This document shows, in pieces, positions 19,127-60,750 of a DNA stretch of 64,000 nucleotides (its first letter is position 1; each line of letters begins with the position of its first letter). Source of the DNA: an uncultured Candidatus Saccharibacteria bacterium. GTDB taxonomy: Bacteria > Patescibacteriota > Minisyncoccia > Phycocordibacterales > UBA918. The notes below the pieces were generated by a model. The model saw only the letters and a list, made by a program, of their open reading frames with translations, had not been told where the DNA came from and did no database searches. Made by a program: the position numbers and the translations under genes. The stretch is taken from NCBI GenBank assembly GCA_964402035.1, contig CAYOAM010000001.1:243558-307557 (forward strand). The letters run 5' to 3'.

Positions 19127-20200
19127 ATGAAAAAACAGACTGTCTTCGTTGGCATGTCCGGTGGCGTCGATTCATCGGTTGCCGCCCTCCTACTTAAGGA
19201 GCAGGGCTACGCGGTAGTTGGTGTATTTATCAAAGTGTGGCAGCCAGATTTTTTATCATGTCACTGGGAAGCCGAGCGTCTGGATGCTATGCGTGTAGCG
19301 GCACATTTGGATATCCCTTTTTTGACATGTGACGCGGAGGATACGTATAAAAAAGATGTAGCTGATTATTTTATTGAATCCTACAAGACTGGCATAACAC
19401 CGAATCCGGATGTTATGTGTAACACCCATATAAAGTTTGGAAGGTTTTTTGAGTTTGCAAAAGAGCATAACGCAACACATATCGCTACCGGACATTATGC
19501 GCGAACAAAGTCCGATACTATTCCAGCGCAGCTCTTGCGAGGAGCGGATGTAGTAAAGGATCAAAGTTATTTTTTGTGGAATATTAGTGAAGATGCTTTG
19601 CGGCATACACTCTTTCCGATAGGACATCTCCAAAAATCTGAAGTACGGGCCATAGCGACGCGTGCGAACCTGCCGACGGCAACAAAAGATGAGAGTCAAG
19701 GAATTTGTTTTTTGGGTCACGTTGATATGCGTGAATTTCTTTCTCACTATATCGATCTCAAAGATGGAGTAGTTGTTGACGAACAGGGCGCTAGTATCGG
19801 TAGTCATCATGGCGCAGTACTCTATACCATAGGGCAGCGTCACGGTTTTCACATCGATCCAAAGCATGCAAGTACTGCTCCGTATTTTGTCATCAATAAA
19901 GACAAAGCACAGAATACGATTATGGTGAGCACTCATAAACCACAGCGACGTGATCTAGAGCTCACGCTTACCAATCTTCGCTATTATGCAGATTCAACAT
20001 CCTTACCCAAGACGCTCGATGTACAGATACGGTATCGGCAAAAACCGCTCCAGGCTAGGGTCACAGGGACGACGGCTTCAACACTGTCACTGACTTTTAC
20101 GGAACCTGCAGATATTCCGGACCAGGGGCAATCCTGCGTTCTCTATAGCAACGATCGCGTGCTCGCGGGTGGTATTATTAGTGCTTCAGTATTACATTAA
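19127..20200 (+). CDS. mnmA: tRNA-specific 2-thiouridylase MnmA
   Basis: PP-loop FVGMSGGVDSSVAA, CNTHIKF motif and full-length MnmA similarity. Confidence 0.9.
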   Translation: MKKQTVFVGMSGGVDSSVAALLLKEQGYAVVGVFIKVWQPDFLSCHWEAERLDAMRVAAHLDIPFLTCDAEDTYKKDVADYFIESYKTGITPNPDVMCNTHIKFGRFFEFAKEHNATHIATGHYARTKSDTIPAQLLRGADVVKDQSYFLWNISEDALRHTLFPIGHLQKSEVRAIATRANLPTATKDESQGICFLGHVDMREFLSHYIDLKDGVVVDEQGASIGSHHGAVLYTIGQRHGFHIDPKHASTAPYFVINKDKAQNTIMVSTHKPQRRDLELTLTNLRYYADSTSLPKTLDVQIRYRQKPLQARVTGTTASTLSLTFTEPADIPDQGQSCVLYSNDRVLAGGIISASVLH

Positions 20201-39128: not shown

Positions 39129-40058
39129 ATGCCGCTCTGGATTCCTATTGCGCTATTGTCTACCTGTATTTATGTATGTGGAAATTTGTTTGATAAGTAT
39201 CTGCTCGATAGATTCAGAAACGAAGATGAAGGCATATCCGATGCCAATGCACTGTTCATGTTTTCATCCTTTTTTGCAATTCCTACCACCATTCTTGCTT
39301 TATACATGGGCGCATCAATGGGATTGCAGTTATATCAAATACTGATTGGATTATTGGCAGGTGTATTCAACGGACTCTATTTACTGTTATATCTACATTC
39401 AATCGCACGCGCAGAGTTATCACGAGTTACTCCCGTCTTCCAGTCAGTACCAATATTCTTGGCAATATTTGGGTACATTATCCTCAATGAAGTGCTTACA
39501 CTACCTCAGATGATAGCAGGGCTTTTTATTGTTGCAGGATCCATAACGCTCTCATACCACAAATCTGAGGGCAGATTTCATGCAGTCCCAACGCTACTTA
39601 TTTTTGGTGCCTCAATTGCTGTTTCCTTGCAGTTTGTGCTATTTAAGTATGCTGCTATTGATACGTCTTTCTGGACCAGCGTCTTGTGGAGTAGTGTAGG
39701 ATTAATCCTTTTCGGAGCAACTATTTTTATACTTAATCGAAACTCACGAAAACACTTTCTGCATATTTTTAGGGCAAGACAGTACAAAATGATATTTCTG
39801 AACTTTTGCAACGAAATAGTGGACACCACCGCACTCCTTACGCTTATGTTTGCTCAGACTCTAGGACCAATAGCCCTTGTCCAGACTGTGGACGCCTTCC
39901 ATCCGATCATATTAATGCTCGGCACATCACTACTCACAATACTTGGTTTCAAATCTATTCAAGAAGACGTTTCAAAATACACTCTAGCGCAAAAGATTGT
40001 AGGGCTGCTTTTGATTGGCATCGGTAGTGTGTATATTTATTACCCTTTGTTTAATTAA
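39129..40058 (+). CDS. EamA/DMT-superfamily transporter
   Basis: About 10 TM helices in two tandem 5-TM halves, typical of the drug/metabolite transporter superfamily. Confidence 0.6.
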   Translation: MPLWIPIALLSTCIYVCGNLFDKYLLDRFRNEDEGISDANALFMFSSFFAIPTTILALYMGASMGLQLYQILIGLLAGVFNGLYLLLYLHSIARAELSRVTPVFQSVPIFLAIFGYIILNEVLTLPQMIAGLFIVAGSITLSYHKSEGRFHAVPTLLIFGASIAVSLQFVLFKYAAIDTSFWTSVLWSSVGLILFGATIFILNRNSRKHFLHIFRARQYKMIFLNFCNEIVDTTALLTLMFAQTLGPIALVQTVDAFHPIILMLGTSLLTILGFKSIQEDVSKYTLAQKIVGLLLIGIGSVYIYYPLFN

Positions 40059-40062
40059 GTTT

Positions 40063-40902
40063 ATGACAAACAAGGTAAGCACTAATAGAATACTGACCGT
40101 AGATAGATTGATGCAAGACAAAAAATCTTTTGACGAGTACGTTTATACCCCCTGGAGGGATGCGATTTCAATTCTCAATGATAGACAGCAGGATACAGTG
40201 TTAGACACTAGCATTAAACATTTGTTGCCCGAAGGACCTCCTCACATTATGATAACCAAGAAATGTATGGTTCTTGGTAGGCATGTTGCAACGCCCAATT
40301 ATGAAATGCATCGTTTTGCAATGTGTGCTGATGTCCTAAAGGAGTTGAACCCAATCATTTTTGAGTATCTTGGCGATAAATTTACCGACACAAATAGTTT
40401 TAAAGCATCCCTAGGTAAGCTGCGATTATATCGAGCTGCGTTCAATAGTAAAGAACCACATTTTGAGTACAGACACGTTGCAGAAATGCAGTGTCACAAG
40501 TGTAAAAGTATAGAGGACATGAAGACAATGTGGGGAGAATCCTTGGTTGGCTTTCATCATAAACTTTTTACTGACACTTTTAACAGTGAAAAATTTTATT
40601 TGTTTGACGCTACCCAGTGGCTGCATAGACATGGAAACAGTGCCGAACAGTATTATCTTGCATATATGAGCCTTTTTTTAAAGCATGGAATTCTTTTTGA
40701 AAATTTTTCTTTAACACATAAAGAGAAAGAATTCACCACAAGAGTGGTGCTGGCTACAATAAGCAAGATGATCGAGCTTACAGGATATAAGCCACTTATT
40801 GTTGCACTAGAACCCACAGATCTTGAAGATGACAGATTTTGGTACTCATACCCATTCTCCAGAAAAACAGCTATTGATAACTTAATTCAAACAAAAGCTT
40901 AA
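40063..40902 (+). CDS. hypothetical protein (in an AT-rich segment)
   Basis: About 280-aa soluble ORF with no recognisable domain. Start taken at the ATG after the upstream stop. Confidence 0.4.
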   Translation: MTNKVSTNRILTVDRLMQDKKSFDEYVYTPWRDAISILNDRQQDTVLDTSIKHLLPEGPPHIMITKKCMVLGRHVATPNYEMHRFAMCADVLKELNPIIFEYLGDKFTDTNSFKASLGKLRLYRAAFNSKEPHFEYRHVAEMQCHKCKSIEDMKTMWGESLVGFHHKLFTDTFNSEKFYLFDATQWLHRHGNSAEQYYLAYMSLFLKHGILFENFSLTHKEKEFTTRVVLATISKMIELTGYKPLIVALEPTDLEDDRFWYSYPFSRKTAIDNLIQTKA

Positions 40903-40922
40903 ATTTGTTATTATTGGGTTAT

Positions 40923-41273
40923 ATGCGTACAACATCCATCGTATATGTAATCGTAGGGATAGTATTCTTGGCTATCATATTCGTTCGCTTTAAGGAATAT
41001 ACAATCGAGAGAGACTTTAATGTGTTTTCATATGTACCATGTGATAGTGTTTTTGAGAATTGTTTTAGAACAGTGTGCGCAGATGATAGTCCCGACTGTG
41101 AAATTATAGATTATAAAAAAATTATTATTAGCGCAAAGATAGCCCCTCAATGTGTTTATGAGCATGACTGCAGTAGTTTTAGCTGCGACGCTTTAGAGAA
41201 TTGTAATGTAGTGTATTGTGATGACGCAACGCTTGAGGAGGGTGAGTCATGCACATCGCCTTTAAATAATTAG
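40923..41273 (+). CDS. membrane-anchored cysteine-rich small protein
   Basis: N-terminal TM (IVYVIVGIVFLAIIFV) followed by about 85 aa containing 12 Cys. Confidence 0.35.
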   Translation: MRTTSIVYVIVGIVFLAIIFVRFKEYTIERDFNVFSYVPCDSVFENCFRTVCADDSPDCEIIDYKKIIISAKIAPQCVYEHDCSSFSCDALENCNVVYCDDATLEEGESCTSPLNN

Positions 41274-41274
41274 T

Positions 41275-42957
41275 ATGTTAGACCTGGCACCATACATTCA
41301 AATACAACACTGCTATAACCTCTTGTCTGAAGTTTCTTTAGAGTTGTTGCTGCTTGCGCATATTCCTACTGGAATGGTAGCAATCCTATTCAGTTTTTTT
41401 GTCGTATATAAGAATCGTACACAGGCAAGTTACGCACTTTTATTTGTATCTTTATTTTTTTTACTATGGAGCTTTCTTAATTTAAACACTTGGTTTGCGT
41501 TTCTTGGCGCAACCAACACAATGTTCACATGGTCACTGATTGATTTAATAAGCTTATTTTTTTTCATATTTACATATCGCTTTCTTTATACATTCATCAA
41601 CAATCACGGCATGCCTTTGTGGCAAATTTTGGTTGGATTTGGACTTATTCTGCCAACAGCGATAACAACCTTAACCGGAATAAATATCACCGACTTTGAT
41701 GCAAATACATGTGAAGCAATAGAGTCAAGTTGGATTGTATTGTACCCATATTTTGTGCAAGGAGTTACATTAATTGCAATAATTGTACTGGGTGTAAGTT
41801 CGTTTAAGAAAGAAACTGATAGGTCAAAAAAAGAACAGGTTATTTTGGCTGCGACAGGAGTATTTCTTTTTTTATTTTTCTTTTTTTCTGCTACGTTCAT
41901 AGTCACATTGCTAATAAATTACACTTCTGTTGCATCACCATATAACTATGCTATCTACGGACTTTTTGGAATGCCAGTCCTTTTGATGTTCTTGGGATAT
42001 CTTATTGTTAAATATAAAGCTTTCAATATTAAACTGATCGGGGCTGAGGCCCTTATTACGACCCTGGTTCTACTGGACGCATCTCAGGTATTCTTTTCCT
42101 CTTCTCGCACAGAATTTGTTGCCAACCTTATCACCATTCTCCTTATCATCCTGTTTGGATCGTTCCTCATACGTAGTGTAAAGAAGGAGATTGCCGCCAA
42201 GGAGCGGAATGAGCAGTTGGCGAAAGACTTGGCACATGCAAATGCGCGCTTGCGAGAGCTTGATAGACAAAAATCAGAATTTGTCTCAATTGCATCACAT
42301 CAATTGCGAAGTCCACTTGCAGCTATTCGTGGCTACGCGTCTATGATGCTCGAAGGTTCATACGGTAAACTACCAGAAAAGGTGCGGGGTATCGTAGAGC
42401 GCATTCAAGAATCGAGTGCATTTATGGCGCTCTCGATCGAAGATTTTTTGGATGTGTCACGTATTGAGCAGGGCCGCATGAAGTATGAATTCAGTGAAGT
42501 AAACTTGCATTCAGTAGCCGAGAAAGTAGTAGATGAATTGCGATCATCAGCACTCAAACGTGGACTTGTTCTTATGTTTAAATCCGATTGCAAAGGTAAC
42601 TGCATGGTAAAAGCGGATCACGGCAAAATTAGACAAATTATATACAATCTTATTGACAATGCTATCAAGTACACAAAAAAGGGAAGTATCAATGTCCTTG
42701 CTCACGATGATGTAGAGCAGCATACGTTTTTTATTACTATACAAGATACTGGCATTGGCATGTCGGAAGAGACTCGTAAGGCTATTTTCGAAAAGTTTGT
42801 CCGTGCAAAGAATGCGAACAGCGTAAACGTGCAAGGGACGGGACTTGGCTTGTATGTAGCAAAACAGATGATTGAGGCAATGGGAGGCAAAATAACTCCT
42901 CGATCCGAAGGCGAAGGAAAGGGGTCTTCATTCACGATTGAGTTGCCGCTTATCTAG
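41275..42957 (+). CDS. sensor histidine kinase with multi-TM N-terminal sensor domain (orphan, no adjacent response regulator)
   Basis: About 7 TM helices, then a coiled coil. H-box HQLRSPLAAIRGYASMM. HATPase_c N-box NLIDNAIKYT and G-box GTGLGLYVAKQ. Confidence 0.8.
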   Translation: MLDLAPYIQIQHCYNLLSEVSLELLLLAHIPTGMVAILFSFFVVYKNRTQASYALLFVSLFFLLWSFLNLNTWFAFLGATNTMFTWSLIDLISLFFFIFTYRFLYTFINNHGMPLWQILVGFGLILPTAITTLTGINITDFDANTCEAIESSWIVLYPYFVQGVTLIAIIVLGVSSFKKETDRSKKEQVILAATGVFLFLFFFFSATFIVTLLINYTSVASPYNYAIYGLFGMPVLLMFLGYLIVKYKAFNIKLIGAEALITTLVLLDASQVFFSSSRTEFVANLITILLIILFGSFLIRSVKKEIAAKERNEQLAKDLAHANARLRELDRQKSEFVSIASHQLRSPLAAIRGYASMMLEGSYGKLPEKVRGIVERIQESSAFMALSIEDFLDVSRIEQGRMKYEFSEVNLHSVAEKVVDELRSSALKRGLVLMFKSDCKGNCMVKADHGKIRQIIYNLIDNAIKYTKKGSINVLAHDDVEQHTFFITIQDTGIGMSEETRKAIFEKFVRAKNANSVNVQGTGLGLYVAKQMIEAMGGKITPRSEGEGKGSSFTIELPLI

Positions 42958-51547: not shown

Positions 51548-52857
51548 CGCGAGTGCCACTATATGCGTTCTCTATAGGTCTGCTGCTGGCAGTTTTTTTG
51601 GCTGTGAGCGTAGGCCCATTTGTGCAAGCGCAATCAAGTCAAGTAACAGAACTCCAAAGCGAAATTTCAAAACGGAACGATCGACTCAAGGAAATTGAAG
51701 CCGAGATAGCGCAGTTTCAAAAAGATCTCCAAAAAGTAGGGGCAGAAAAAAGTACTTTACAGAAAGCAATTCAACAACTTGAACTTGAAAGAAAGAAAAT
51801 CAGTGCTGACATTAGCTATACGCAAAATAAAATTGGCTCGACGGACCTCGAGATCAGTAAACTTAACCTAGAAATTGGGACGATGGAGACCGACATTGGT
51901 ACCAACCGAGAGGCGATCGGGGAAATACTGCGTCGAGTCAATGAAACTGATCAGGACACGTTGCTTGTGGCACTGCTACGTAATGAAAATCTTGCTCAAT
52001 TTTGGAACACAATCGAGCAATTGGAAAATATCCGAAGCGCAATGGCAAAGCGGGTGAAAGAGTTGGCGTCAGTCAAAAATCTACTTGAAGTAAAGCGCAA
52101 TGATCACAAAGAAAAACGCGATGATTTAGTGGATCTTAAGAATCAGTACAGCGACCAACAAAAAATCCTTTCCAACAATAAAGTCGAAAAAGACCAGCTC
52201 CTTAAGCAAACAAAAAACAAAGAAGCAACATACCAAAGTCTACTCAAAGAAAAACAAGCTGCACGTGAGACGATAGTAAAGGAGCTCCGTGACTTTGAAT
52301 CAAAGCTTCAGTTTATCCTTGATCCGTCGACTATTCCGCCACCAGGTACCGTCGTTTTCAATTGGCCGGTCGCAAATGTGTATATTACACAGTACTTTGG
52401 AGGTACAGAATTTGCCAAAAGAAATGCATCGGTCTATGGTGGTCGCGCATACCATCCTGGAGTCGACTTTGGAGTCCCACGCGGCACCAAAATCCTTGCT
52501 CCACTGGCTGGCCGTGTACGTGCTACCGGTAACACTGACGCTGTACCTGGCTGCTATTCATGGGGCAAATGGACTCTTATTGACCACACCAACGGCCTCT
52601 CGACGCTCTACGCACATCAAGACCTCATAAGCGTCACTCCAGGCCAAGCTGTCGGTACAGGCGATGTGATCGGATATTCTGGCAATACGGGTTATTCGAC
52701 TGGGCCGCATTTGCATTTTACTGTATACGCACAAAAAGGAGTATCTGTGCGCCAATTCAACGAAATCAAGACTGTCACGAGCTGTGGTCCAGCCTCCACA
52801 CCTGTTGCAGCAACTGAAGCTTATATTGATCCCATGTTGTATTTACCAAAAGTATAA
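51544..52857 (+). CDS. M23 peptidase with N-terminal coiled coil (EnvC-like)
   Basis: Signal/TM, long coiled coil, C-terminal LytM domain HPGVDFGVP...HLHFTVY. Confidence 0.85.
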   Translation: MTRVPLYAFSIGLLLAVFLAVSVGPFVQAQSSQVTELQSEISKRNDRLKEIEAEIAQFQKDLQKVGAEKSTLQKAIQQLELERKKISADISYTQNKIGSTDLEISKLNLEIGTMETDIGTNREAIGEILRRVNETDQDTLLVALLRNENLAQFWNTIEQLENIRSAMAKRVKELASVKNLLEVKRNDHKEKRDDLVDLKNQYSDQQKILSNNKVEKDQLLKQTKNKEATYQSLLKEKQAARETIVKELRDFESKLQFILDPSTIPPPGTVVFNWPVANVYITQYFGGTEFAKRNASVYGGRAYHPGVDFGVPRGTKILAPLAGRVRATGNTDAVPGCYSWGKWTLIDHTNGLSTLYAHQDLISVTPGQAVGTGDVIGYSGNTGYSTGPHLHFTVYAQKGVSVRQFNEIKTVTSCGPASTPVAATEAYIDPMLYLPKV

Positions 52858-52864
52858 TCGCGTT

Positions 52865-53311
52865 ATGACTCAACGGCACCTGTCTGCAACTACCGTGCAT
52901 GTACTTTTACAAAATGATGACTCGTTGTTGCTATTGCGTCGACACAATACCGGGTGGGGAGATGGTATGTATGGTGTTCCTGCGGGCCATGTTGAAAAAG
53001 GAGAAAGCGTCCTCGAAGCGGCCGTACGAGAAGCAAAAGAAGAGTGCGGCGTAACCATTGACCCGCAGAACTTACATTTCGCTCATGTCATACACCAGCA
53101 ACAACGCGCACGAGACCTGATCGATAGAGTACATTTCTTTTTTACCTGCAAAATATTTGAGGGTATTCCAACAAATACCGAACCTGATGCATGCGATGAA
53201 GTCACGTGGCGCAAAAACGAAACGCTGCCAACAAATATGCTACCGTACATTACACGAACACTTGTACATATCAAAAACGGGATCGCGTACTCAGAATTTA
53301 TAGATTCTTAA
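52865..53311 (+). CDS. NUDIX hydrolase
   Basis: Nudix box GHVEKGESVLEAAVREAKEECGV. TATAAT 6 nt upstream of the ATG, overlapping the previous stop codon. Start at the internal Met; the track starts at 52784. Confidence 0.8.
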   Translation: MTQRHLSATTVHVLLQNDDSLLLLRRHNTGWGDGMYGVPAGHVEKGESVLEAAVREAKEECGVTIDPQNLHFAHVIHQQQRARDLIDRVHFFFTCKIFEGIPTNTEPDACDEVTWRKNETLPTNMLPYITRTLVHIKNGIAYSEFIDS

Positions 53312-53894
53312 CACTCAATATTGTGCGACCCTTATTCGTACTAAGTTTTTTATCGAAGTAACCAGCACTTATTAGCTACAACCAAACAGATACTTGTATT
53401 AGCAGCTGACCGTTATCGTAAAAATAAATATTCACGATGAATATTTGTATAAAGATAGATACTCGGTTGGACTCAAGAATGATTTCCAAAACTAGACGTT
53501 TAATAAAACACAAACAAGCACAGATACGCATATAGACGTACCTATACTAGGGCCTAAATCTGGCGCAAGCTGATTCTTTGAGCTGGCTTGAGCAAAACAG
53601 AACAATATGCACACAGAATAAAAAAGCAAATAAATAAAAAAATAATCGAAATTCAAAGGAACTTAAGATAAAAAATGTACAAACATTTATTCAAATAAAG
53701 CACAGCAAAAGTTAACAAGAGTATCAGTAGAATGTAGAAGGTCAGCGGTAGCCAATGTGGAGGCTAAAGATCTGCGGGGGGCTTACACCTATACTATGCG
53801 TCGTAAAAGATATATTGTGCGACGCTTATGCCCATAGAGGAGCAGCTCCCCATCAAGGTAACAATCAATTAAGGCCTTCTGATCTACTGGTACT
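53312..53894. other. 583-bp ORF-free, A/T-rich tract flanked by direct repeats
   Basis: No ORF of 60 aa or more on either strand. Direct repeat atattgtgcgac at 53318-53329 and 53813-53824 (17 of 18 matches over atattgtgcgacNcttat). 9-3-9 perfect palindrome aaatattca-cga-tgaatattt at 53426-53446. Long A-runs between 53600 and 53700. Confidence 0.5.
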
Positions 53895-54449
53895 TTAGAT
53901 CTTATTTTGCAAAAATTCCCGGAGTTTTTTTGCAGCGGCGCCACGCATGCTAATTTTATTCTTCTCTTCTTGAGTCATTTCAGCAAAAGTCTTCCTGTAG
54001 CCTTCTGGCACAAAAATGAGATCCCAACCAAAGCCTTCTTTGACACGTGGAGCTACTACCCTACCCACCACCTCGCCTTCAAAGAAATGTACTGCGTCTT
54101 TTGATTCAGCATATCCAATAATAGTTTTTGCTGTTGCTTTTGTATCACCAAGTTTTGCTGCAATATCTGCTAGTCCAGTATCTCCAAGTGACGAGAGAAA
54201 CCATTTTATAAGTGGTCCTGGCAATCCACCAAGTGCGTCGAGGTATAGAGACATATCTTCTACCATACAAGGACCAGTAGTATGTTTAAAAGCTTCATGG
54301 AGCTTTGCCTCAATAATCTTGCGAGCATCAAGTTCCTGAATCTCCGTCAAATCAACCGTCAGCTGAACGAGACTAACGCTACTACTCGCCACAATAGCGT
54401 CTATTTCTTGAAACTTTCTGCTACTACCGGTTATGAATGTAATGTTCAT
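53895..54449 (-). CDS. rdgB: non-canonical purine NTP pyrophosphatase (RdgB/Ham1 family)
   Basis: ITFITGSSRKFQE, FGWDLIFVPEG and SMRGAAAKKL Ham1 motifs. Confidence 0.85.
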   Translation of the reverse strand: MNITFITGSSRKFQEIDAIVASSSVSLVQLTVDLTEIQELDARKIIEAKLHEAFKHTTGPCMVEDMSLYLDALGGLPGPLIKWFLSSLGDTGLADIAAKLGDTKATAKTIIGYAESKDAVHFFEGEVVGRVVAPRVKEGFGWDLIFVPEGYRKTFAEMTQEEKNKISMRGAAAKKLREFLQNKI

Positions 54450-54485
54450 GATAGAAATTATACATCTAATGTATCTTTGCTTATT

Positions 54486-54824
54486 TCAAACCATTTTTCC
54501 ACCGTTAGGAACATTGTGAGTTGGCCGCAGCAACACTATAGCGCCAGTACTATCCGGTAGTCCTAGTATCAAAACCTCCGAGAGAAACGGCCCGACTTGT
54601 TTTGGCGCAAAATTAACGACCGCAACGACCTGCGTTCCCACCAACTCTTCTTTACTGTAATTTGCGGTGATCTGAGCTGAAGATCGCTTTACTCCTATAT
54701 CCGTACCAAAATCCATTGTAAGTTGATAGGAGGGCTTTCTTGCTTCAGGAAAATCCTCAACAGAAACAATAGTACCAACCCTCACATCAACATTCAGAAA
54801 ATCAGTATATGAAATCATACACAA
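54486..54824 (-). CDS. tRNA-binding domain protein (CsaA/EMAP-like OB fold)
   Basis: LNVDVRVGTIVSVEDFPEARKPSYQLTMDFG...QVVAVVNFAP matches the CsaA/MetRS-C-type tRNA-binding domain. Confidence 0.7.
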   Translation of the reverse strand: MCMISYTDFLNVDVRVGTIVSVEDFPEARKPSYQLTMDFGTDIGVKRSSAQITANYSKEELVGTQVVAVVNFAPKQVGPFLSEVLILGLPDSTGAIVLLRPTHNVPNGGKMV

Positions 54825-54825
54825 G

Positions 54826-55053
54826 CTACTGCATTAAAGTAAATCTAGACATGCGTTGTCCATCAACTTCGATCTCTTTTACAAATTCTGCATACGGGCG
54901 TACCCAAACCGTACCTGACTTGTAGTCACCAGAGTCTTGCTGTGATTCATAGACAACTACTGGCTCTTGCGTCTCTTCCAATAATCCCAGCGCTATAACC
55001 TTATAGAGGCCGCCCTTATAGTGCTGATACATGCCTAAACGTACATCAAACAT
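54826..55053 (-). CDS. DUF1653 domain protein
   Basis: YQHYKGGLYKV...VVVYESQQ...WVRPYAEF matches the DUF1653 consensus. Confidence 0.6.
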   Translation of the reverse strand: MFDVRLGMYQHYKGGLYKVIALGLLEETQEPVVVYESQQDSGDYKSGTVWVRPYAEFVKEIEVDGQRMSRFTLMQ

Positions 55054-55057
55054 ACTA

Positions 55058-55636
55058 TTAATATTTACGGACTACTCCACGCACAACAGCGGCAATGCGC
55101 AAGCTATGCTTGGGATAAATCGGTTTAAAATTTTTATTTGCGGGTTCAAGCCATGTACGATCTCCCAATTTTTTCAGAAACTTAAGGGTCCATTCACCAT
55201 CAACTTCAGCAACAACGATGTCTCCATCACGCGCAGTACTTGCGCGTTCGGCCACCACCAAATCACCTTCTTCAATATGCACTTCTATCATCGAATCACC
55301 TTTTACTTCAAGCAAAAAAGTGCGGCCACGATCAGCTATGAGGTAGCCATCCAAGCTCATAGTATCCAGTGCTTCTGCATCAACCATTGTCGGTGAACCA
55401 GCTTGTACCAACCCCAGCAGAGGAAGCTCAGAAAGGCGGTCGGTGGGTATAAGTCTTCCCTGCCCATCCTTGCTCACAACCCCATCATCAACCAACTTGG
55501 CGACCAACTTGTACACAGCATTTTTTGATTTAAAACCAACCAGTTTTAAAATCTCTTGATACGAGGGCATGCGTCGCTCTCGTTCGTAGAATCCAATTAT
55601 TTTTTTCTTATAGTCTTGATACATGTTTATCTCCAT
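55058..55636 (-). CDS. lexA: LexA-like transcriptional repressor (S24 peptidase), paralog 1
   Basis: N-terminal winged HTH (FKSKNAVYKLVAKLVDDGVV), Ala-Gly cleavage site (VQAGSP), Ser nucleophile GDSMIE and Lys in TLKFLKK. Confidence 0.85.
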   Translation of the reverse strand: MEINMYQDYKKKIIGFYERERRMPSYQEILKLVGFKSKNAVYKLVAKLVDDGVVSKDGQGRLIPTDRLSELPLLGLVQAGSPTMVDAEALDTMSLDGYLIADRGRTFLLEVKGDSMIEVHIEEGDLVVAERASTARDGDIVVAEVDGEWTLKFLKKLGDRTWLEPANKNFKPIYPKHSLRIAAVVRGVVRKY

Positions 55637-55827
55637 GAGGGGATGAAAACTCGGAAGAGGCGAGAAATGGAACGACGAGTGTCTTCCCTACGAAGCTGAG
55701 CAAGCAAGCTTTTGTGGCGGCGGGCTTCTCTTCGGTAATCAGCATCTTGCATGATCTTGCGATCGATGATGCCATTGAGCTTTTGTATTTCGATATTGAG
55801 AGCCTTAAGATATTCTTGCTTGTTCAT
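55627..55827 (-). CDS. small hypothetical protein co-transcribed with lexA1 downstream of a LexA box
   Basis: 66-aa ORF. Its TAA stop overlaps the lexA1 start region (TAAACATG coupling). Lies between the LexA-box promoter and lexA1. Predicted helical and basic. Confidence 0.4.
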   Translation of the reverse strand: MNKQEYLKALNIEIQKLNGIIDRKIMQDADYRREARRHKSLLAQLRREDTRRSISRLFRVFIPSWR

Positions 55828-55857
55828 GATAATTGTACCTTATACTTGTATAGATAT

Positions 55858-55886
55858 AGTATAGGTGAACGGACGTTCACCGTCAA
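55858..55886 (-). promoter_or_regulatory. SOS promoter with LexA box in the spacer: TTGACG-[GTGAACGTCCGTTCACC]-TATACT (minus-strand sense)
   Basis: Plus-strand ggtgaacggacgttcacc at 55864-55881 is a GAAC-N4-GTTC Cheo-type box. Minus-strand -35 TTGACG (55881-55886) and -10 TATACT (55858-55863) with a 17-nt spacer. Confidence 0.7.
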
Positions 55887-55915
55887 GAATTTGTACACTT
55901 TTTCTTGTGGATAAC

Positions 55916-57223
55916 CTAGTCAACTTCACCCAACATAGGGATTGCCAGGCGTTTACGAGCAGTCTCACCTTTAAAAAGAAGGGTCGCGCGACGACTGACT
56001 TCCCCACGCTCCCCTACATGCGCTCCAAGCTTCATTGCTTTAAAACTGGAACCGAGAAAAATAGCATGCTTTCCATATTTTTCTGAAAGCGCATCCACAC
56101 TTTCAAAGATACGGGTAAGTGTCTCTGAACGCTGCACGGTGCCAAAAAGATCGAGCTGTTCTGTTGATACCTCTGTAAGCCCCACAAAGGTGACTCCGGT
56201 TGCGCGATATGTTGTACCGGTCTTAAAGATGCTGCTAAATCGTTCTCCTAATGCTTGCAGAATATCGTGTGGGTTGTTGGTAGGATGCGACAACTCAATC
56301 TCTATTGAGTGAAATCTGAAATCTTGTGTTTTCAAAAATACCAATGCACGCGCAGAGACCAGATGCCATCGGCGCATTTTGATACATGCATTTTCAATAT
56401 TTTTTGATAGCTGAGAAAAGACAAATGACACATTGGGAGACGGCGGTGTAAATGTCTTTGTCTTACTAATAGACTGAAAGCTTTTTCTTCCTTCGATATC
56501 AAGTGGAAATACTTTGATACCATTGAGCTCCTGCCAAATCTCTAGATATGGCTTCGAAAGCATACTGCGCACCCACCCTTCATCACGCTCCGCAAACTGT
56601 AGCGCAGTTGTGATGCCATACTTGGTGAGCAACGCCGCTGTTTGGGGCCCTATCCCCCACACTGATCCAATCGGTAATTTTGCCAAATATACTCCTGCAT
56701 CGCGTAGTGGTATCACCGTGAGGCCGGATGGTTTTTTCCATTTTGATCCAAGTTTGGCAAGCACCTTGGTTGCAGAGAGTCCAATAGAAAATGTCATACC
56801 AAGTTCTGTATCGAGATCATGTTTAATCCGCTCTGCAATCGTCGCATAGGAACAATGATGCACTCGTCGCATGCCACCAAGATCAGCAAAACACTCATCA
56901 ATACTGTACTCTTCTACCGCAGGCGTATACCGACGAACGATATCGTACATGCGCTGAGAAAAGAGACAGTACGTCTCATAATCAGACGGAAGTACAATTG
57001 CTTTTGGACATAATTTTTTGGCTTCAGAAATACGCATACCTGTTTTGACCCCGCACGCTTTTGCTTCATAGGTGGATGCAGATACAATACCCCGCTCTTT
57101 TCCAGTAATGACTGGCTTACCACGAAGTGCTGGATTTTTGGCAACTTCACACGATGCAAAAAAAGAATCTCCGTCGATATGGAGAATGGCGTGTGGAAAT
57201 GAGCTCAATGATCCCCAACTCAT
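55916..57223 (-). CDS. dinB: Y-family DNA polymerase (DinB/Pol IV-like)
   Basis: ILHIDGDSFFASCEV catalytic motif. Palm/finger/little-finger length and SIDECFAD motif. Confidence 0.9.
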   Translation of the reverse strand: MSWGSLSSFPHAILHIDGDSFFASCEVAKNPALRGKPVITGKERGIVSASTYEAKACGVKTGMRISEAKKLCPKAIVLPSDYETYCLFSQRMYDIVRRYTPAVEEYSIDECFADLGGMRRVHHCSYATIAERIKHDLDTELGMTFSIGLSATKVLAKLGSKWKKPSGLTVIPLRDAGVYLAKLPIGSVWGIGPQTAALLTKYGITTALQFAERDEGWVRSMLSKPYLEIWQELNGIKVFPLDIEGRKSFQSISKTKTFTPPSPNVSFVFSQLSKNIENACIKMRRWHLVSARALVFLKTQDFRFHSIEIELSHPTNNPHDILQALGERFSSIFKTGTTYRATGVTFVGLTEVSTEQLDLFGTVQRSETLTRIFESVDALSEKYGKHAIFLGSSFKAMKLGAHVGERGEVSRRATLLFKGETARKRLAIPMLGEVD

Positions 57224-57225
57224 AG

Positions 57226-57801
57226 CTAATACTTGCGCACCACGGCAGTGACGACCGCTTCAATTTTCAAATCTTCTTTTGGATACATGCGTGGATATTT
57301 TTTGTTTGCCGGCTCGAGGAAATATTTTCCTGCGTCCTTTCTTAGATACTTGAGTGTGTATTGCCCATCGACTGCCGCAACCACAATCTGCCCCACTTTG
57401 TAGGTCGCTTTTCGTTCGACAATAACCATGTCTCCCGGATGAATACCCGCATCGATCATGGAATCGCCTTTTACCTTAAGTATGTAACTAGCTTCTTTAT
57501 TTGGGGTGAGATACTCATCAAAATCCATAACATCAAGCAGTTCTTCCTCTGCCGGAGACGGAAAGCCCGCCTCAACAAGACCCAAAAGCCGGGTGCCCCG
57601 CAGCGCCCTTCCAGGCGAGAGATGGCCCTTAGTATCCTTTTCCAAGACCCCGCTCTCTACAAGCCGTTCTATGAGCTTATAGACGGCGTTTTTAGACCGA
57701 AATCCCGTCATATCCATGATCTCCTGGTACCCTGGCATACGTCGAGTACGCTCATAAAAAGAGATGATTTTGTCGCGGTAGGTGTGTTGGCGTGTTTTCA
57801 T
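57226..57801 (-). CDS. lexA: LexA-like transcriptional repressor (S24 peptidase), paralog 2
   Basis: HTH (FRSKNAVYKLIERLVESGVL), Ala-Gly site (VEAGFP), GDSMID Ser and Lys in TLKYLRK. Only 2 nt upstream of dinB. Confidence 0.85.
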   Translation of the reverse strand: MKTRQHTYRDKIISFYERTRRMPGYQEIMDMTGFRSKNAVYKLIERLVESGVLEKDTKGHLSPGRALRGTRLLGLVEAGFPSPAEEELLDVMDFDEYLTPNKEASYILKVKGDSMIDAGIHPGDMVIVERKATYKVGQIVVAAVDGQYTLKYLRKDAGKYFLEPANKKYPRMYPKEDLKIEAVVTAVVRKY

Positions 57802-57809
57802 ACAGGTGA

Positions 57810-57838
57810 AGTATAGGTGAACTATAGTTCACCGTCAA
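57810..57838 (-). promoter_or_regulatory. SOS promoter with perfect palindromic LexA box in the spacer: TTGACG-[GTGAACTATAGTTCACC]-TATACT, leaderless geometry
   Basis: Plus-strand ggtgaactatagttcacc at 57816-57833 is a perfect 18-bp palindrome. Minus-strand -35 at 57833-57838 and -10 at 57810-57815. Only 8 nt lie between the -10 and the lexA2 ATG. Confidence 0.75.
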
Positions 57839-57915
57839 TAAAAACACTGGTACAACTAAAACGAGAAAATGGCGGCATCCAAAATGGATACCACCCTTTT
57901 CTAAAACTACAACTC

Positions 57916-58530
57916 CTACCCCTGCTTATTCATCCCCTTCCAAAAGAAAGCAGTTCCTGATGCAAGAAATGCGAGTCCCAAGAGCCACGTAAGTCCACCA
58001 AACACTGAACCAAATCCCCCACCCATCATACCGCTATGTCCACGTCCTCCCATCATACCCCAATTGTCGTCACTACCCTTTCGCGCGTCTCCACTAAAAC
58101 CACCTCCCATATGATCTCCCATCATTGGTGAAAAATATTCTGCACCTTTTGGAAGAGCAGCTCCCGTATCACATCCACTTAAGCGTTTCCCCATCGCAAT
58201 ATGCATCTGTTCTTCCCCTTCTTCCCCAAGCCTGTCTGCCATCATGGTATTCATTGCCTCATGATTGGCACCCATCATGTTACCCATAAAGAAATCAGCC
58301 AGTACATCAAAATCCTCATCTTTCAAATCTTTGCAGGTCACCTGTTTGCTCTGCAATTTGTCCCACACTGCCTTCCCCTCTGCTTCTTCTTCAGAAATAG
58401 TCTTTGATCCCGTGTTTGCCGTTGTCGTACCCATAACCTTGTTATTCATACCACCCATCATCTGCGCATGTGCAGGAATACCAATGGCAAATGCCATGAA
58501 TAACGGGACCACCATGAATATTTTTTTCAT
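57916..58530 (-). CDS. secreted Met/Gly/His-rich protein with C-terminal TM anchor (possible metal-binding)
   Basis: Signal peptide MKKIFMVVPLFMAFAIGIPAHA. Repeated MMGG/MxxM/HxxM motifs. C-terminal hydrophobic helix. Confidence 0.5.
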   Translation of the reverse strand: MKKIFMVVPLFMAFAIGIPAHAQMMGGMNNKVMGTTTANTGSKTISEEEAEGKAVWDKLQSKQVTCKDLKDEDFDVLADFFMGNMMGANHEAMNTMMADRLGEEGEEQMHIAMGKRLSGCDTGAALPKGAEYFSPMMGDHMGGGFSGDARKGSDDNWGMMGGRGHSGMMGGGFGSVFGGLTWLLGLAFLASGTAFFWKGMNKQG

Positions 58531-58662
58531 AAGATATTCAAATCAAATAATAAAGGACTACTTCGATGCTTCCTCTATTGTCCAGTATACGCCGATTGAC
58601 CGATTTTCATACGTACACGAAAACAACATCCTTTCGCACCAATTACTACGTATAACAGCAAG

Positions 58663-60750
58663 TTAAATTTCAGCCAATATCTGAATCGTACCTTGGGCGC
58701 CGTCAATACGAACTCGTTCGCCTACACGCAGTGTCTTTTGCGGTGCCACTACCACCGGGATACGATACTCACGAGCAACAATTGCAAGGTGCGATAAGAT
58801 TCCACCTTGCTTTGAAATAATTCCTGCAATCCGATCAAAGTACATGGTGAGCTTTGGATCCAACGTATCGACCAATAAAATCGACCCTTCTGGCATCACA
58901 TCTCCCGCAGCTACTAGCACCCCTTCCGCGACCCCCGAAGAAACACCTTGGTTCGTATCAAGCGTGGATGTTGAGACACTGGCAATAGTCTGCGGAAACT
59001 CATAGGTGCTCTGTACTTCATATTCAGATTTTCTTTGCTCAAGAGATTCTTTGTCAAAACGACCCGTACGCGCCTCATCAAGTGTCAAATAATACATGAA
59101 GTGTTCGTATTCTAACCCGACCAGGGTACGCAAAGCGTTTCGTAGACCGGATAGACACATAACCGTAATCCAGCGCCCTTCTTCTCGCAGTATTTCATAT
59201 TGTCGTGCAGAATGTATGGCATCTTTAATATCTGCGGATTCTTTTGTCGATCGTTGCTGCCACCACCGCTGAATTGCTTCATCGTCAAAAGAAGCAGCCT
59301 CCATACGTGCGCGAAAAACACTCTCATCTCCAATATTTAGAGAATTGCCGACCATCTGGCCTTCTATTTCTGAAAGAAGGCTACTACTAGCATGCGTCTC
59401 AACGGAGGAGATCACCGATGTACCAAGAAGCTCATGTGCTTTATAGGGAGTATTTTTTAGCACACTGTCGAGTTTTTTAAATACTTTTTCAGCAATGATA
59501 TTTACAGCAAAAATATCTGTGTACGCGGCAACAAGCATCAAGAGCCAGTCTGAAAAAGTGTGGTCTTGAGATGCCATTTGTCTTATTTTTTGCACATGCG
59601 CACGAAATAGATCGTGTGTCAGAGCCCAGTCATGTGTCGGTATCTGTTGGAGATAATAGACATTCCGAAGCGTGGTCCATAATCCTCGCAGAGTTACAAT
59701 ACGTGGTGAAAGCGATGCAGTGCCAAAATAGGAATGTGTGGGGAAAAAATTCTGCAGTTCTGCTTGCTTATCGATGTATAGGGTGTTTTTAAACACCTGT
59801 ATCATGGATTCCGGTTCGTATTGTATGTGGAAACGTTTGTACGCTACAGCGATCGCTCCGTCTTTTTGATAGAGATAGAGTAGTATGTCGCGTGCAAGTG
59901 GGTATGGTTTTGTAAAAGAATCAGCCAAGGTAGTCTGATCATAATAAAAGTCATCAGCAGCGATTGTTACATCCAAGAAGCGCAATGCTCGATAGCGTGA
60001 TTCTGAAATAGTCGTAATGGGTCTTGTCTGCAATACATACACAACCCCCTTGATTATCGCCCACTCAACATCCTGTGGAGCGTCATATTCTTGCTCAAGC
60101 TTTTTTGTGAGCGCAACAAGGTCGCCAAAACCAGCAAATGGAATAGGCGACGGTATTTTTTTACAAGAGAAAACCAAACGCTCTGAAGCTCCTCCACCAA
60201 CGACATCCGCACCGTTACCCTCTTTCCATTCAACAACCATTTCATAGCCACCCAGCGGATTGCGACTAAAAATAACACCTGCAATATCTGGTTCAACGTA
60301 CGCTTGAATAATAAGAGAAAAAGGATGTGCTACTGTCGCGTAGCCTTTTGCCTGTGCTTCTGCGATCACCGCATGTATCGCCGCTCCAATATCGTGAGGC
60401 GACACGTCAAGTTTCGTCATAAATGCCCCCGCATGTGAATGCGTACCACCATCTTCTCCTTGAGCACTCGAACGAACAGCATACCGTTGTGCTACAACAT
60501 CTCGTGATATCGCGGATACCAGAGGCATTAACAGCTCCTGCGGATCGCCGGCGTACACAAGGTCCTGAACCGTCTCAATACTTATCGCAACAAACGCAGG
60601 CACACGGTATCCGTGCTCATGACACTGTGCAAGCCGCACTGTTTTTTGGCCGAATAATTGAGCGCGTGCAAGAACCTCCGTTGGAGCAAATACAAGCGGC
60701 TCTTCTGCATTTCTTCTATTCTCCATAGGTATGCAGGTAACCCAATCCAA
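58663..60750 (-). CDS. PEP-utilising enzyme with RPH-like architecture (N-terminal PPDK_N/ATP-grasp, C-terminal swivelling His domain)
   Basis: C-terminal GIISKQGGILSHLAIVAREYRIPVVV is the PEP-utilisers mobile His domain. N-terminal region is pyruvate-phosphate-dikinase-like. Confidence 0.65.
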   Translation of the reverse strand: MDWVTCIPMENRRNAEEPLVFAPTEVLARAQLFGQKTVRLAQCHEHGYRVPAFVAISIETVQDLVYAGDPQELLMPLVSAISRDVVAQRYAVRSSAQGEDGGTHSHAGAFMTKLDVSPHDIGAAIHAVIAEAQAKGYATVAHPFSLIIQAYVEPDIAGVIFSRNPLGGYEMVVEWKEGNGADVVGGGASERLVFSCKKIPSPIPFAGFGDLVALTKKLEQEYDAPQDVEWAIIKGVVYVLQTRPITTISESRYRALRFLDVTIAADDFYYDQTTLADSFTKPYPLARDILLYLYQKDGAIAVAYKRFHIQYEPESMIQVFKNTLYIDKQAELQNFFPTHSYFGTASLSPRIVTLRGLWTTLRNVYYLQQIPTHDWALTHDLFRAHVQKIRQMASQDHTFSDWLLMLVAAYTDIFAVNIIAEKVFKKLDSVLKNTPYKAHELLGTSVISSVETHASSSLLSEIEGQMVGNSLNIGDESVFRARMEAASFDDEAIQRWWQQRSTKESADIKDAIHSARQYEILREEGRWITVMCLSGLRNALRTLVGLEYEHFMYYLTLDEARTGRFDKESLEQRKSEYEVQSTYEFPQTIASVSTSTLDTNQGVSSGVAEGVLVAAGDVMPEGSILLVDTLDPKLTMYFDRIAGIISKQGGILSHLAIVAREYRIPVVVAPQKTLRVGERVRIDGAQGTIQILAEI

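Follow-up and report, generated by a model that had tools for sequence, protein, structure and literature searches.

Two lexA operons in tandem on a Candidatus Saccharibacteria contig: probably ordinary SOS units of Patescibacteria followed by a clade-specific housekeeping tail

When genes for repair, regulation and nucleotide metabolism follow each other closely on one strand, do they form a dedicated damage-tolerance device, or have ordinary units come to lie side by side in a compact genome? This question is raised by positions 53895-57838 of a 64,000-nucleotide stretch of DNA (hereafter, the window) from an uncultured Candidatus Saccharibacteria bacterium, where two genes encoding LexA-family repressors of the SOS response (lexA2 and lexA1), the gene of a Y-family translesion polymerase (polY) and that of a Ham1/RdgB-family pyrophosphatase are found on the minus strand. 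An earlier note on this DNA had proposed an accessory, possibly mobile cassette, not described before, in which LexA control couples translesion synthesis with nucleotide sanitising. We consider it likely, instead, that the window contains two ordinary Patescibacteria SOS operons in tandem, with three housekeeping genes behind the second one, and that the arrangement is mostly a lineage-specific assembly of known parts and not a dedicated or mobile damage-tolerance cassette. What is observed, and carries this explanation, is the anatomy of the locus, the family assignments of its proteins, the fact that operators, promoters and operon types are conserved, a phylogeny with two clades, and the rarity of the tail.

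All the open reading frames (ORFs) that had been listed between 53895 and 57838 were found at their coordinates, on the minus strand and in the same order. Thus, unit 1 consists of promoter P1, lexA2 and polY, and unit 2 of promoter P2, an ORF of 66 amino acids (aa), lexA1, and the genes encoding a DUF1653 protein, a CsaA-like protein and Ham1/RdgB. The two LexA-family repressors, the Y-family polymerase and the two LexA-type operators within promoters were likewise borne out, by domain matches and by the sequence itself. Genome evidence for the source organism comes from the 64-kb window, and comparative evidence from about 190 related loci collected by three routes. The gene surroundings of homologues of LexA1 and of LexA2 were compared at successive levels of identity; species-representative genomes were scanned for the operator followed by the -10 element, with at least 120 loci and at least 121 pattern sites as the outcome; and metagenomes were searched with the LexA1 protein, yielding 80 loci. 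The window matches a metagenomic contig of 453 kb at 100% identity, and the homologues of the two LexA proteins carry the labels Parcubacteria, Pacebacteria or Kaiserbacteria, in keeping with a Patescibacteria genome of the Paceibacteria type. Across these loci the two operon types normally occur apart; here they stand back to back.

Both units start from the same kind of promoter. P1 (57810..57838, minus strand) is composed of the -35 element TTGACG (57838-57833), the palindrome GTGAAC-TATA-GTTCAC (57832-57817) and the -10 element TATACT (57815-57810), and P2 (55858..55886, minus strand) has the same -35 (TTGACG, 55886-55881) and -10 (TATACT, 55863-55858) elements on either side of GTGAAC-GTCC-GTTCAC (55880-55865). 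In each case, the spacer of 17 nucleotides (nt) is filled almost wholly by the perfect 16-bp palindrome GTGAAC-N4-GTTCAC, followed by a C before the -10 element, and the two promoters make up a 41-nt direct repeat, with its copies 1952 nt apart. Such a perfect operator palindrome between the -35 and -10 elements of both lexA promoters is, at the sequence level, a feature of autoregulation, and a LexA dimer bound to it would block RNA polymerase at each promoter. P1 is shielded from upstream transcription by a terminator-like hairpin (57871..57895, minus strand; 11-bp stem with 6 G-C pairs and a T-rich tail) located at the 3' end of the upstream gene, which encodes a protein of 204 aa.

The number of boxes says little, as GAAC-N4-GTTC occurs twice in the 64 kb where 0.93 would be expected, and two or more were found in 24 of 100 shuffles, which is not significant. 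It is their placement and their conservation across genomes, and not the site count, that make the operator assignment convincing. Two sites with 2 mismatches, at 19950 and 38375, were dismissed, both of them lying within ORFs. Extra GAAC-N4-GTTC boxes, which several metagenomic loci have at a distance of a few kb from lexA, were considered to be due to chance, since they have neither the GGT/AC flanks, nor a promoter context, nor a consistent downstream gene.

The conservation of the operator is most evident in the lexA1 loci selected by protein similarity, a choice free of any bias towards a DNA pattern. Box and promoter are present in 65 of the 67 such loci with sufficient upstream DNA, and throughout these 65 the sequence GGTGAAC-N4-GTTCAC is invariant, flanked by a TTGnnn -35 and a TATAcT -10. 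The P1-type architecture recurs in lexA-polY loci (L009 and L011), and the P2-type promoter is kept upstream of the small ORF-lexA pair in relatives. As for the genes behind the box, at the pattern sites (at least 121) the small ORF and lexA follow in 63 cases, lexA and polY in 18, the three genes small ORF-lexA-polY in 7, lexA alone in 13, and other orders of these genes or contig-end fragments in 8; the remaining 12, mostly from metagenome-assembled genomes (MAGs) not labelled Patescibacteria, have no lexA downstream. DUF1653, CsaA or Ham1 was found downstream of the box in none of the pattern-selected loci listed (at least 120). Among the matches listed, the operator plus -10 pattern comes almost exclusively from Patescibacteria MAGs, and the small ORF-lexA and lexA-polY pairs each recur in dozens of species. 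Since both architectures recur across the group, what the window brings together is a pair of standard SOS operons of Patescibacteria.

Apart from these, the operator plus -10 pattern also appears several times in two Saprospiraceae MAGs (L019, L027, L063, L066, L068 and L086), with neither lexA nor polY downstream, and in L086 it appears twice within about 35 nt. These sites could be a repeated element or the site of an unrelated regulator.

The repressors themselves are of two kinds. LexA1 (55058..55624, minus strand) is a LexA repressor of 188 aa, and LexA2 (57226..57801, minus strand) a LexA-family repressor of 191 aa with a predicted winged helix-turn-helix (wHTH) N-domain and a UmuD-like S24 C-domain; Peptidase_S24 is matched by both in Pfam and NCBIfam. 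The Ala-Gly site and the Ser/Lys dyad, which had been assigned to both copies, are indeed in place: A75-G76 and S111/K148 in LexA1 (numbered from the corrected start), and A78-G79, followed by FPSPA, and S114/K151 in LexA2, align with A84-G85, S119 and K156 of Escherichia coli LexA, which supports the view that both repressors look cleavable. The start of lexA1 is almost certainly the ATG at 55624, preceded by a GGAG Shine-Dalgarno sequence inside the end of the small ORF and in agreement with nearly all homologues (188 aa) and with the public gene call. From this start, lexA1 does not overlap the 66-aa ORF, and an exact look-up of the 192-aa LexA1 ORF gave no match because the true start lies 4 codons downstream.

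LexA1 passes the LexA equivalog model TIGR00498 with 123.9 bits (cut-off 110.95), and LexA2 stays just under the cut-offs of both this model (108.8 bits) and the UmuD model NF007621 (109.1 bits, cut-off 110). The Pfam model LexA_DNA_bind is matched weakly by LexA2 (18.5 bits, cut-off 23.7) and not by LexA1 at E<=0.01, and the N-domains of both proteins are covered by full-length alignments to the LexA of Thermotoga maritima and of E. coli. The earlier note had called both proteins LexA, as opposed to UmuD or phage CI. This holds for LexA1, which clusters with LexA and passes TIGR00498, and has to be modified for LexA2, which is a LexA/UmuD intermediate, although not a CI-like one.

The two proteins are 53% identical and, in a neighbour-joining tree of 185 LexA sequences built without support values, LexA2 falls within a 13-member clade formed entirely by proteins from lexA-polY operons devoid of the small ORF, sister to a 165-member clade, mostly from small ORF-lexA operons, which contains LexA1. 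As to whether they are in-paralogues, this tree argues for two deep clades and against recent duplicates; the identity of 53% and the two deep clades led us to reject a recent tandem or in-genome duplication of lexA. The nearest database relatives of LexA2 fall from 100% to about 76% identity, those of LexA1 stand at 99, 90 and 87%, and the pair of a lexA2-type gene with polY is kept in differing gene neighbourhoods. Another locus with two paralogues, in a different orientation, is seen on a metagenomic contig (L157, 833-3090), where a lexA2-type gene is divergent from a lexA1-type gene.

How would the two units work together? The recognition-helix segment SKNAVYKL is identical in LexA1 and LexA2, and the operator half-sites are identical in P1 and P2, from which the two repressors are predicted to cross-regulate both units, so that each of them should repress P1 as well as P2. 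Following DNA damage, RecA-stimulated cleavage at the Ala-Gly site of LexA would open both promoters (recA itself was not located within the window). At P1 only 8 nt separate the -10 element from the ATG of lexA2, a gap so short that the lexA2 mRNA is predicted to be leaderless. Gaps of 6-10 nt between -10 and ATG are also found in 17 of 33 lexA-first operons, and likewise in 14 of 74 small-ORF-first loci, and would imply the existence of leaderless SOS transcripts in Patescibacteria. The DNA binding and self-cleavage of the LexA proteins, the induction by damage, the co-transcription of the genes and the read-through between units are all steps that we infer from sequence.

According to the alternative that survives best, LexA2 would be one more repressor, redundant in part, that became subfunctionalised (its cleavage rate or its affinity may have changed, for example) so that the expression of the polymerase is timed, and it would have no role as a polymerase subunit. 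This is quite possible, if short of probable: LexA1 and LexA2 share the operator and the recognition-helix segment, other lineages are known to have lexA duplicates that regulate each other, and the polymerase is DinB-like. However, it leaves unexplained two features described below, namely the enrichment of an exact UmuD motif in the polY-linked copies and the presence of C-domain-only or catalytically dead S24 variants beside polY.

The polymerase, polY (55916..57223, minus strand), is a Y-family translesion polymerase of 435 aa, placed in this family by its Pfam IMS match (157.7 bits) together with IMS_C and IMS_HHH, and DinB-like by sequence. Among solved structures, it matches a DNA polymerase IV best. 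The NCBIfam models for DinB give it 215-241 bits, under their cut-offs of 256-399, and the UmuC model 151 bits, under a cut-off of 431. A clamp-binding-type motif, QLDLF, occupies residues 356-360 and is followed by a 75-aa C-terminal extension. The stop codon of lexA2 and the ATG of polY are separated by 2 nt (TAG-ct-ATG), a gap that suggests translational coupling.

It is in the C-domain of LexA2 where the likeness to UmuD becomes apparent. Among proteins of solved structure, LexA2 is matched best by UmuD, residues 1-111 of UmuD' aligning with residues 79-188 of LexA2, that is, from G79 onwards. Scored against UmuD and against the LexA C-domain, the C-domain of LexA2 obtains 74.7 and 57.0 bits, respectively, and LexA1 61.2 and 65.1. 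The exact motif AGFPSPA is present in 16 of 23 lexA-polY operons as compared to 1 of 93 small ORF-lexA operons. Still, LexA2 is not a canonical UmuD, given its score under the cut-off, its predicted 77-residue wHTH N-domain and the DinB-like polymerase next to it. Two variants of the arrangement add to the picture. In L029 (2614-2952, minus strand), the same operator and promoter lead to a leaderless 102-aa protein formed only by a LexA2-type C-domain, with the catalytic Ser changed to Gly, whose gene overlaps the start of polY; in L080 (1508-1975), the order is small ORF, lexA, the gene of a 155-aa UmuD-like protein without the Ser, and polY. The UmuD-like C-domain and these variants suggest that the S24 partner may serve the polymerase besides repressing.

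From here, a further explanation can be formulated, in which LexA2 would be a bifunctional LexA/UmuD hybrid: the intact protein would repress P1 and P2 and, once RecA had stimulated its cleavage at A78-G79, its 113-aa C-terminal fragment, with GFPSPA at its start, would act as a UmuD'-like accessory subunit of the polymerase translated along with it. This proposal would refine unit 1 of the explanation by two ordinary operons and not replace it, and we hold it only tentatively. The structural alignment from G79, the higher score of the C-domain against UmuD, the enrichment of AGFPSPA in lexA-polY operons, the 2-nt gap, the two variants and the nearly equal standing of the full-length protein under the UmuD and LexA models all argue for it, as does the precedent of UmuDAb, a UmuD-type protein acting as a repressor. 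However, the polymerase scores well over its UmuC value when compared to DinB (up to 241 bits versus 151), and polymerase IV works without UmuD'; a slight lean to UmuD is seen in all the Patescibacteria LexA C-domains, which makes the signal partly clade-wide; in at least one locus (L109), polY follows the box directly and no S24 gene is present; and L029 and L080 are single examples, possibly of decaying genes.

The first gene of the lexA1 operon (55627..55827, minus strand) encodes a basic protein of 66 aa, with 17 Lys and Arg versus 8 Asp and Glu residues, which belongs to an unannotated conserved family. The small ORF precedes lexA in most of the loci examined, and several of the loci classified as lexA-first, with a gap of about 250 nt, seem to hold diverged copies of it. 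Its family has the consensus M..(E/Q)YLKALN.EIQKLN.IID.KI.....Y..EARRHK.LLAQLR, with 19 invariant columns across 29 sequences, and a profile search retrieved 306 representative clusters, all of them of 43-107 aa and standalone, nearly all annotated as 'hypothetical protein' in their sources. The ORF is thus a real conserved gene. No credible match was obtained in Pfam or NCBIfam even at E<=10, and the two-helix structure modelled by AlphaFold2 (mean pLDDT 84) has no Foldseek match in the PDB. As to its function, we favour that of a modulator of LexA or RecA, a role proposed from gene linkage alone and by analogy with other small proteins; we consider a division inhibitor less probable, as the promoter that the gene shares with lexA is leaky and autoregulated. 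Taken together, a possible, though not probable, reading would be that the polY-linked LexA2 represents a one-gene fusion of the SOS switch with a mutasome accessory factor and that, separately, the 66-aa protein represents an undescribed SOS component, most plausibly acting on LexA or RecA.

Behind lexA1 lie the three genes on which the idea of a coupled cassette depended. The DUF1653 protein (54826..55053, minus strand; 75 aa, assigned by Pfam) is encoded 4 nt past lexA1. The CsaA-like tRNA-binding-domain protein (54486..54824, minus strand) probably starts at the ATG at 54818, which gives 110 aa, and is above the cut-offs of NF007495 (171.1 versus 117) and TIGR02222 (153.4 versus 119.65). 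The last gene of the string encodes the Ham1/RdgB-family non-canonical purine NTP pyrophosphatase (53895..54449, minus strand; 184 aa), whose family membership follows from PF01725 (Ham1p_like, 148.3 bits, cut-off 22.5); its score under the NCBIfam equivalog TIGR00042 (124 versus 145.35) makes this an assignment at family level, which does not imply exact orthology. The gaps that had been reported were confirmed, with 4 nt between lexA1 and DUF1653, 1 nt (TTG start) or 7 nt (ATG start) between DUF1653 and CsaA, and 36 nt between CsaA and Ham1, and a single transcript for these four genes is, as had been proposed, likely. Because the gaps are small and neither promoter nor terminator is predicted from lexA1 to Ham1, the tail is most likely co-transcribed with lexA1 from P2. 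Read-through from P1 would probably reach it as well, since P2 starts 29 nt past the polY stop, with no predicted terminator in between.

Co-transcription, however, is not the same as a conserved design. DUF1653, CsaA or Ham1 genes lie directly behind lexA1 in 4 of 191 lexA loci, all of them with a LexA1 at least 81% identical to that of the window, and the tail erodes stepwise with distance: the sister contig L213 (LexA1 99% identical) has the identical layout of DUF1653, CsaA and Ham1; L001 (90%) has DUF1653, a racemase, CsaA and Ham1; L214 (87%) has DUF1653 and CsaA, and then the contig ends; and L215 (81%) has only DUF1653. In more distant relatives, lexA1 is followed by a glutamate racemase gene, a polysaccharide-synthesis gene, unrelated genes or nothing, and in L135 and L136 DUF1653 is found on the upstream side of the lexA promoter. 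In compact Patescibacteria genomes, it is routine for unrelated genes to be strung together. Being restricted to the immediate clade, the tail would represent local gene order in such a genome and not a conserved SOS design.

These data bear directly on the integrated and possibly mobile cassette, in which LexA control would have been deliberately extended to Ham1, the CsaA-like protein and DUF1653 in order to couple translesion synthesis with the clean-up of dITP and XTP. Its best arguments are the tight gaps with no predicted promoter or terminator from lexA1 to Ham1, the retention of lexA1-DUF1653 in the four loci of the close clade (with CsaA or Ham1 in three of them), the position of DUF1653 in L135 and L136, where it neighbours the lexA promoter from upstream, and the fact that lexA2-polY together with the 204-aa ORF forms an indel relative to the loci whose LexA1 is 81-90% identical, which have no lexA2-polY at this position. 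Against this, 187 of the 191 lexA loci lack the tail, with racemase or unrelated genes in its place, and a dedicated coupling is thus not supported. Its mobility does not fare better. Neither integrase, transposase nor relaxase genes were found among the genes of the region, by ORF list and domain scan, and no flanking att or inverted repeats besides the duplicated promoter. Viral contigs yielded no close relative of LexA2 (only generic S24 matches of at most 39% identity) and no relative of polY, plasmid collections being outside this search. The GC content of the region, 0.43-0.46, is typical of the window, with no compositional anomaly, and the lexA1 locus keeps its position opposite or beside the M23-gltX-murG-ftsW block in relatives, a chromosomal setting that is conserved, as is the dif-like site adjoining it. 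We therefore regard the cassette as improbable.

Weaker still, and hardly credible, is the idea that lexA2-polY is the remnant of a prophage or integrative element with a CI-like repressor resembling LexA, which can invoke the abundance of S24 repressors in phages and the weak S24-only matches on viral contigs, but has against it the far weaker match of LexA2 to lambda CI (E of about 1e-5 to 1e-6) than to LexA and UmuD (about 1e-17), on which a CI-like LexA2 was rejected, the low identity of those viral matches and the lack of a viral polY relative, the absence of phage genes nearby, and a P1 operator identical to that of the chromosomal lexA1.

The explanation by two ordinary operons in tandem also has points that weigh against it. 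The sampling is skewed, one set of loci having been picked by a DNA pattern and the other by similarity to LexA1; the tree combines this biased sampling with its lack of support values; and both paralogues occur together only in L157 and in the sister contig L213 among the loci examined. As regards transcription, a weak terminator-like hairpin in the 3' end of polY (55983-55995) could limit the read-through from P1, and the consensus scan leaves room for weak internal promoters in lexA1 or DUF1653.

Several other features of the surroundings were recorded. The 204-aa ORF upstream of P1 (57916-58530, minus strand) encodes a Gly/Met-rich protein with hydrophobic N- and C-termini and no family match, and is missing at the corresponding position of the relatives. 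Beyond Ham1, a 28-bp imperfect palindrome with an 11-6-11 structure lies at 53798-53825 (on the minus strand, GCGTCGCACAA-TATATC-TTTTACGACGC), within a convergent intergenic region of 583 nt between Ham1 and a NUDIX gene, where gene orientation flips and the cumulative GC skew peaks. It has no Rfam or tRNA match, and is kept with at most 4 mismatches in L001, L002, L004, L047, L110, L134 and L135, the coding DNA of which is only 65-75% identical. A half-copy, in which one arm of the palindrome appears again 494 nt away, is located at 53318-53335, just past the NUDIX stop. This palindrome is a candidate dif/Xer site at what would be the likely replication terminus. The NUDIX hydrolase (52865-53311, plus strand) has only weak MutT-like matches and is convergent to Ham1, so that the dif-like site has the gene of a putative nucleotide-pool enzyme on either side; a NUDIX gene is also near lexA in L011, L194 and L203. 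Neither a tRNA nor an Rfam family was found within 52500-58800, and elsewhere in the window the GC content dips to 0.36 at 40001-42000, as compared to about 0.44-0.46 in the rest.

What remains of interest is therefore different from what had been claimed. A cassette joining translesion synthesis and nucleotide sanitising under SOS control would matter little, the coupling being a gene-order accident of one narrow clade. The comparative picture, on the contrary, is that of a reduced SOS system in the Candidate Phyla Radiation (CPR), with a single putative operator, invariant and built into the spacer of the promoter, two LexA lineages that separate deeply and have different partner genes, frequent predicted leaderless transcripts, and a widespread unannotated small protein travelling with lexA. 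The interest beyond the original claim thus lies in the 66-aa family, the UmuD-like C-domain of LexA2 and the predicted leaderless lexA2 transcript, and would be higher if the LexA/UmuD hybrid or an SOS role of the small protein were confirmed. If LexA2 did double as a UmuD'-like subunit, the activation of the polymerase would depend, in a compact manner, on the same cleavage that derepresses its gene, and the protein would represent an intermediate step in evolution from one to the other of LexA and UmuD. The hosts are largely uncultured, and both ideas are approachable with purified proteins.

The kind of system found here is already known, and its novelty is limited to the tandem arrangement and the clade-specific housekeeping tail. 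The statement that this arrangement had not been described is thus true only in a narrow sense, as its components and operator make up the usual Patescibacteria SOS kit and the duplication of lexA with cross-regulation has been documented elsewhere. Regarding the group itself, the LexA regulon of Patescibacteria reportedly has a Gram-positive-like palindromic motif and is small, centred on lexA and translesion polymerases. A comparative study of the SOS network of this group exists (Sanchez-Osuna, Barbe and Erill 2017, Environ Microbiol 19:3465). The superphylum and the repressor family are the same as here, and both operon types of the window recur across the group; the window differs in having the two types in tandem and the housekeeping tail. 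The operator has the GAAC and GTTC half-sites and the 4-nt spacing of the SOS box of Firmicutes and Actinobacteria (the 'Cheo box'), GAAC-N4-GTTC being the canonical LexA motif of Firmicutes. Contrary to that box, here G-G-T before GAAC and A-C after GTTC are invariant, and the putative operator is located inside the 17-nt spacer of a near-consensus promoter.

In Geobacter sulfurreducens, each lexA is reportedly co-transcribed with a dinB. Two autoregulated lexA genes are reported for this species by Jara et al. (2003), and duplicated, cross-regulating lexA genes are known from Geobacter, Leptospira, Xanthomonas, Pseudomonas putida and Opitutaceae. The likeness with Geobacter resides in the two autoregulated lexA paralogues, predicted here from their operators, and in a lexA with the gene of a Y-family polymerase right behind it. 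However, in the window only one paralogue is linked to the polymerase, the other being tied to a small basic protein, and the two, 53% identical, come from deep clades and have one operator in common, GAAC-N4-GTTC, whereas the LexA motif of Geobacter is GGTT-N10-AACC.

The closest functional analogues, by their organization, would be umuDC for unit 1, and UmuDAb with DdrR for unit 1 and the small protein. Unit 1, as a predicted leaderless lexA2-polY operon, would be umuDC-like, with an S24 partner that would retain the DNA-binding domain of LexA. As in the umuDC operon of E. coli, an S24 gene is directly upstream of a Y-family polymerase gene, to which it would be coupled under a predicted LexA operator, and the LexA2 C-domain starts with GFPSPA after the cleavage site, as UmuD' does. 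Contrary to umuDC, the S24 protein is predicted here to have a full LexA-type DNA-binding domain and to repress its own promoter, and the polymerase is DinB-like. UmuDAb from Acinetobacter belongs to the UmuD type, has a DNA-binding region at its N-terminus and, as a repressor capable of self-cleavage, controls the genes of error-prone polymerases; in the window, the operator is different and a genuine LexA, LexA1, is also present. Finally, DdrR, the corepressor of UmuDAb in Acinetobacter, and gp7 from phage GIL01, which works with LexA, are small proteins that bind the repressor. Even though neither of them has a sequence relationship to the 66-aa protein encoded with lexA1, this protein could play a comparable role.

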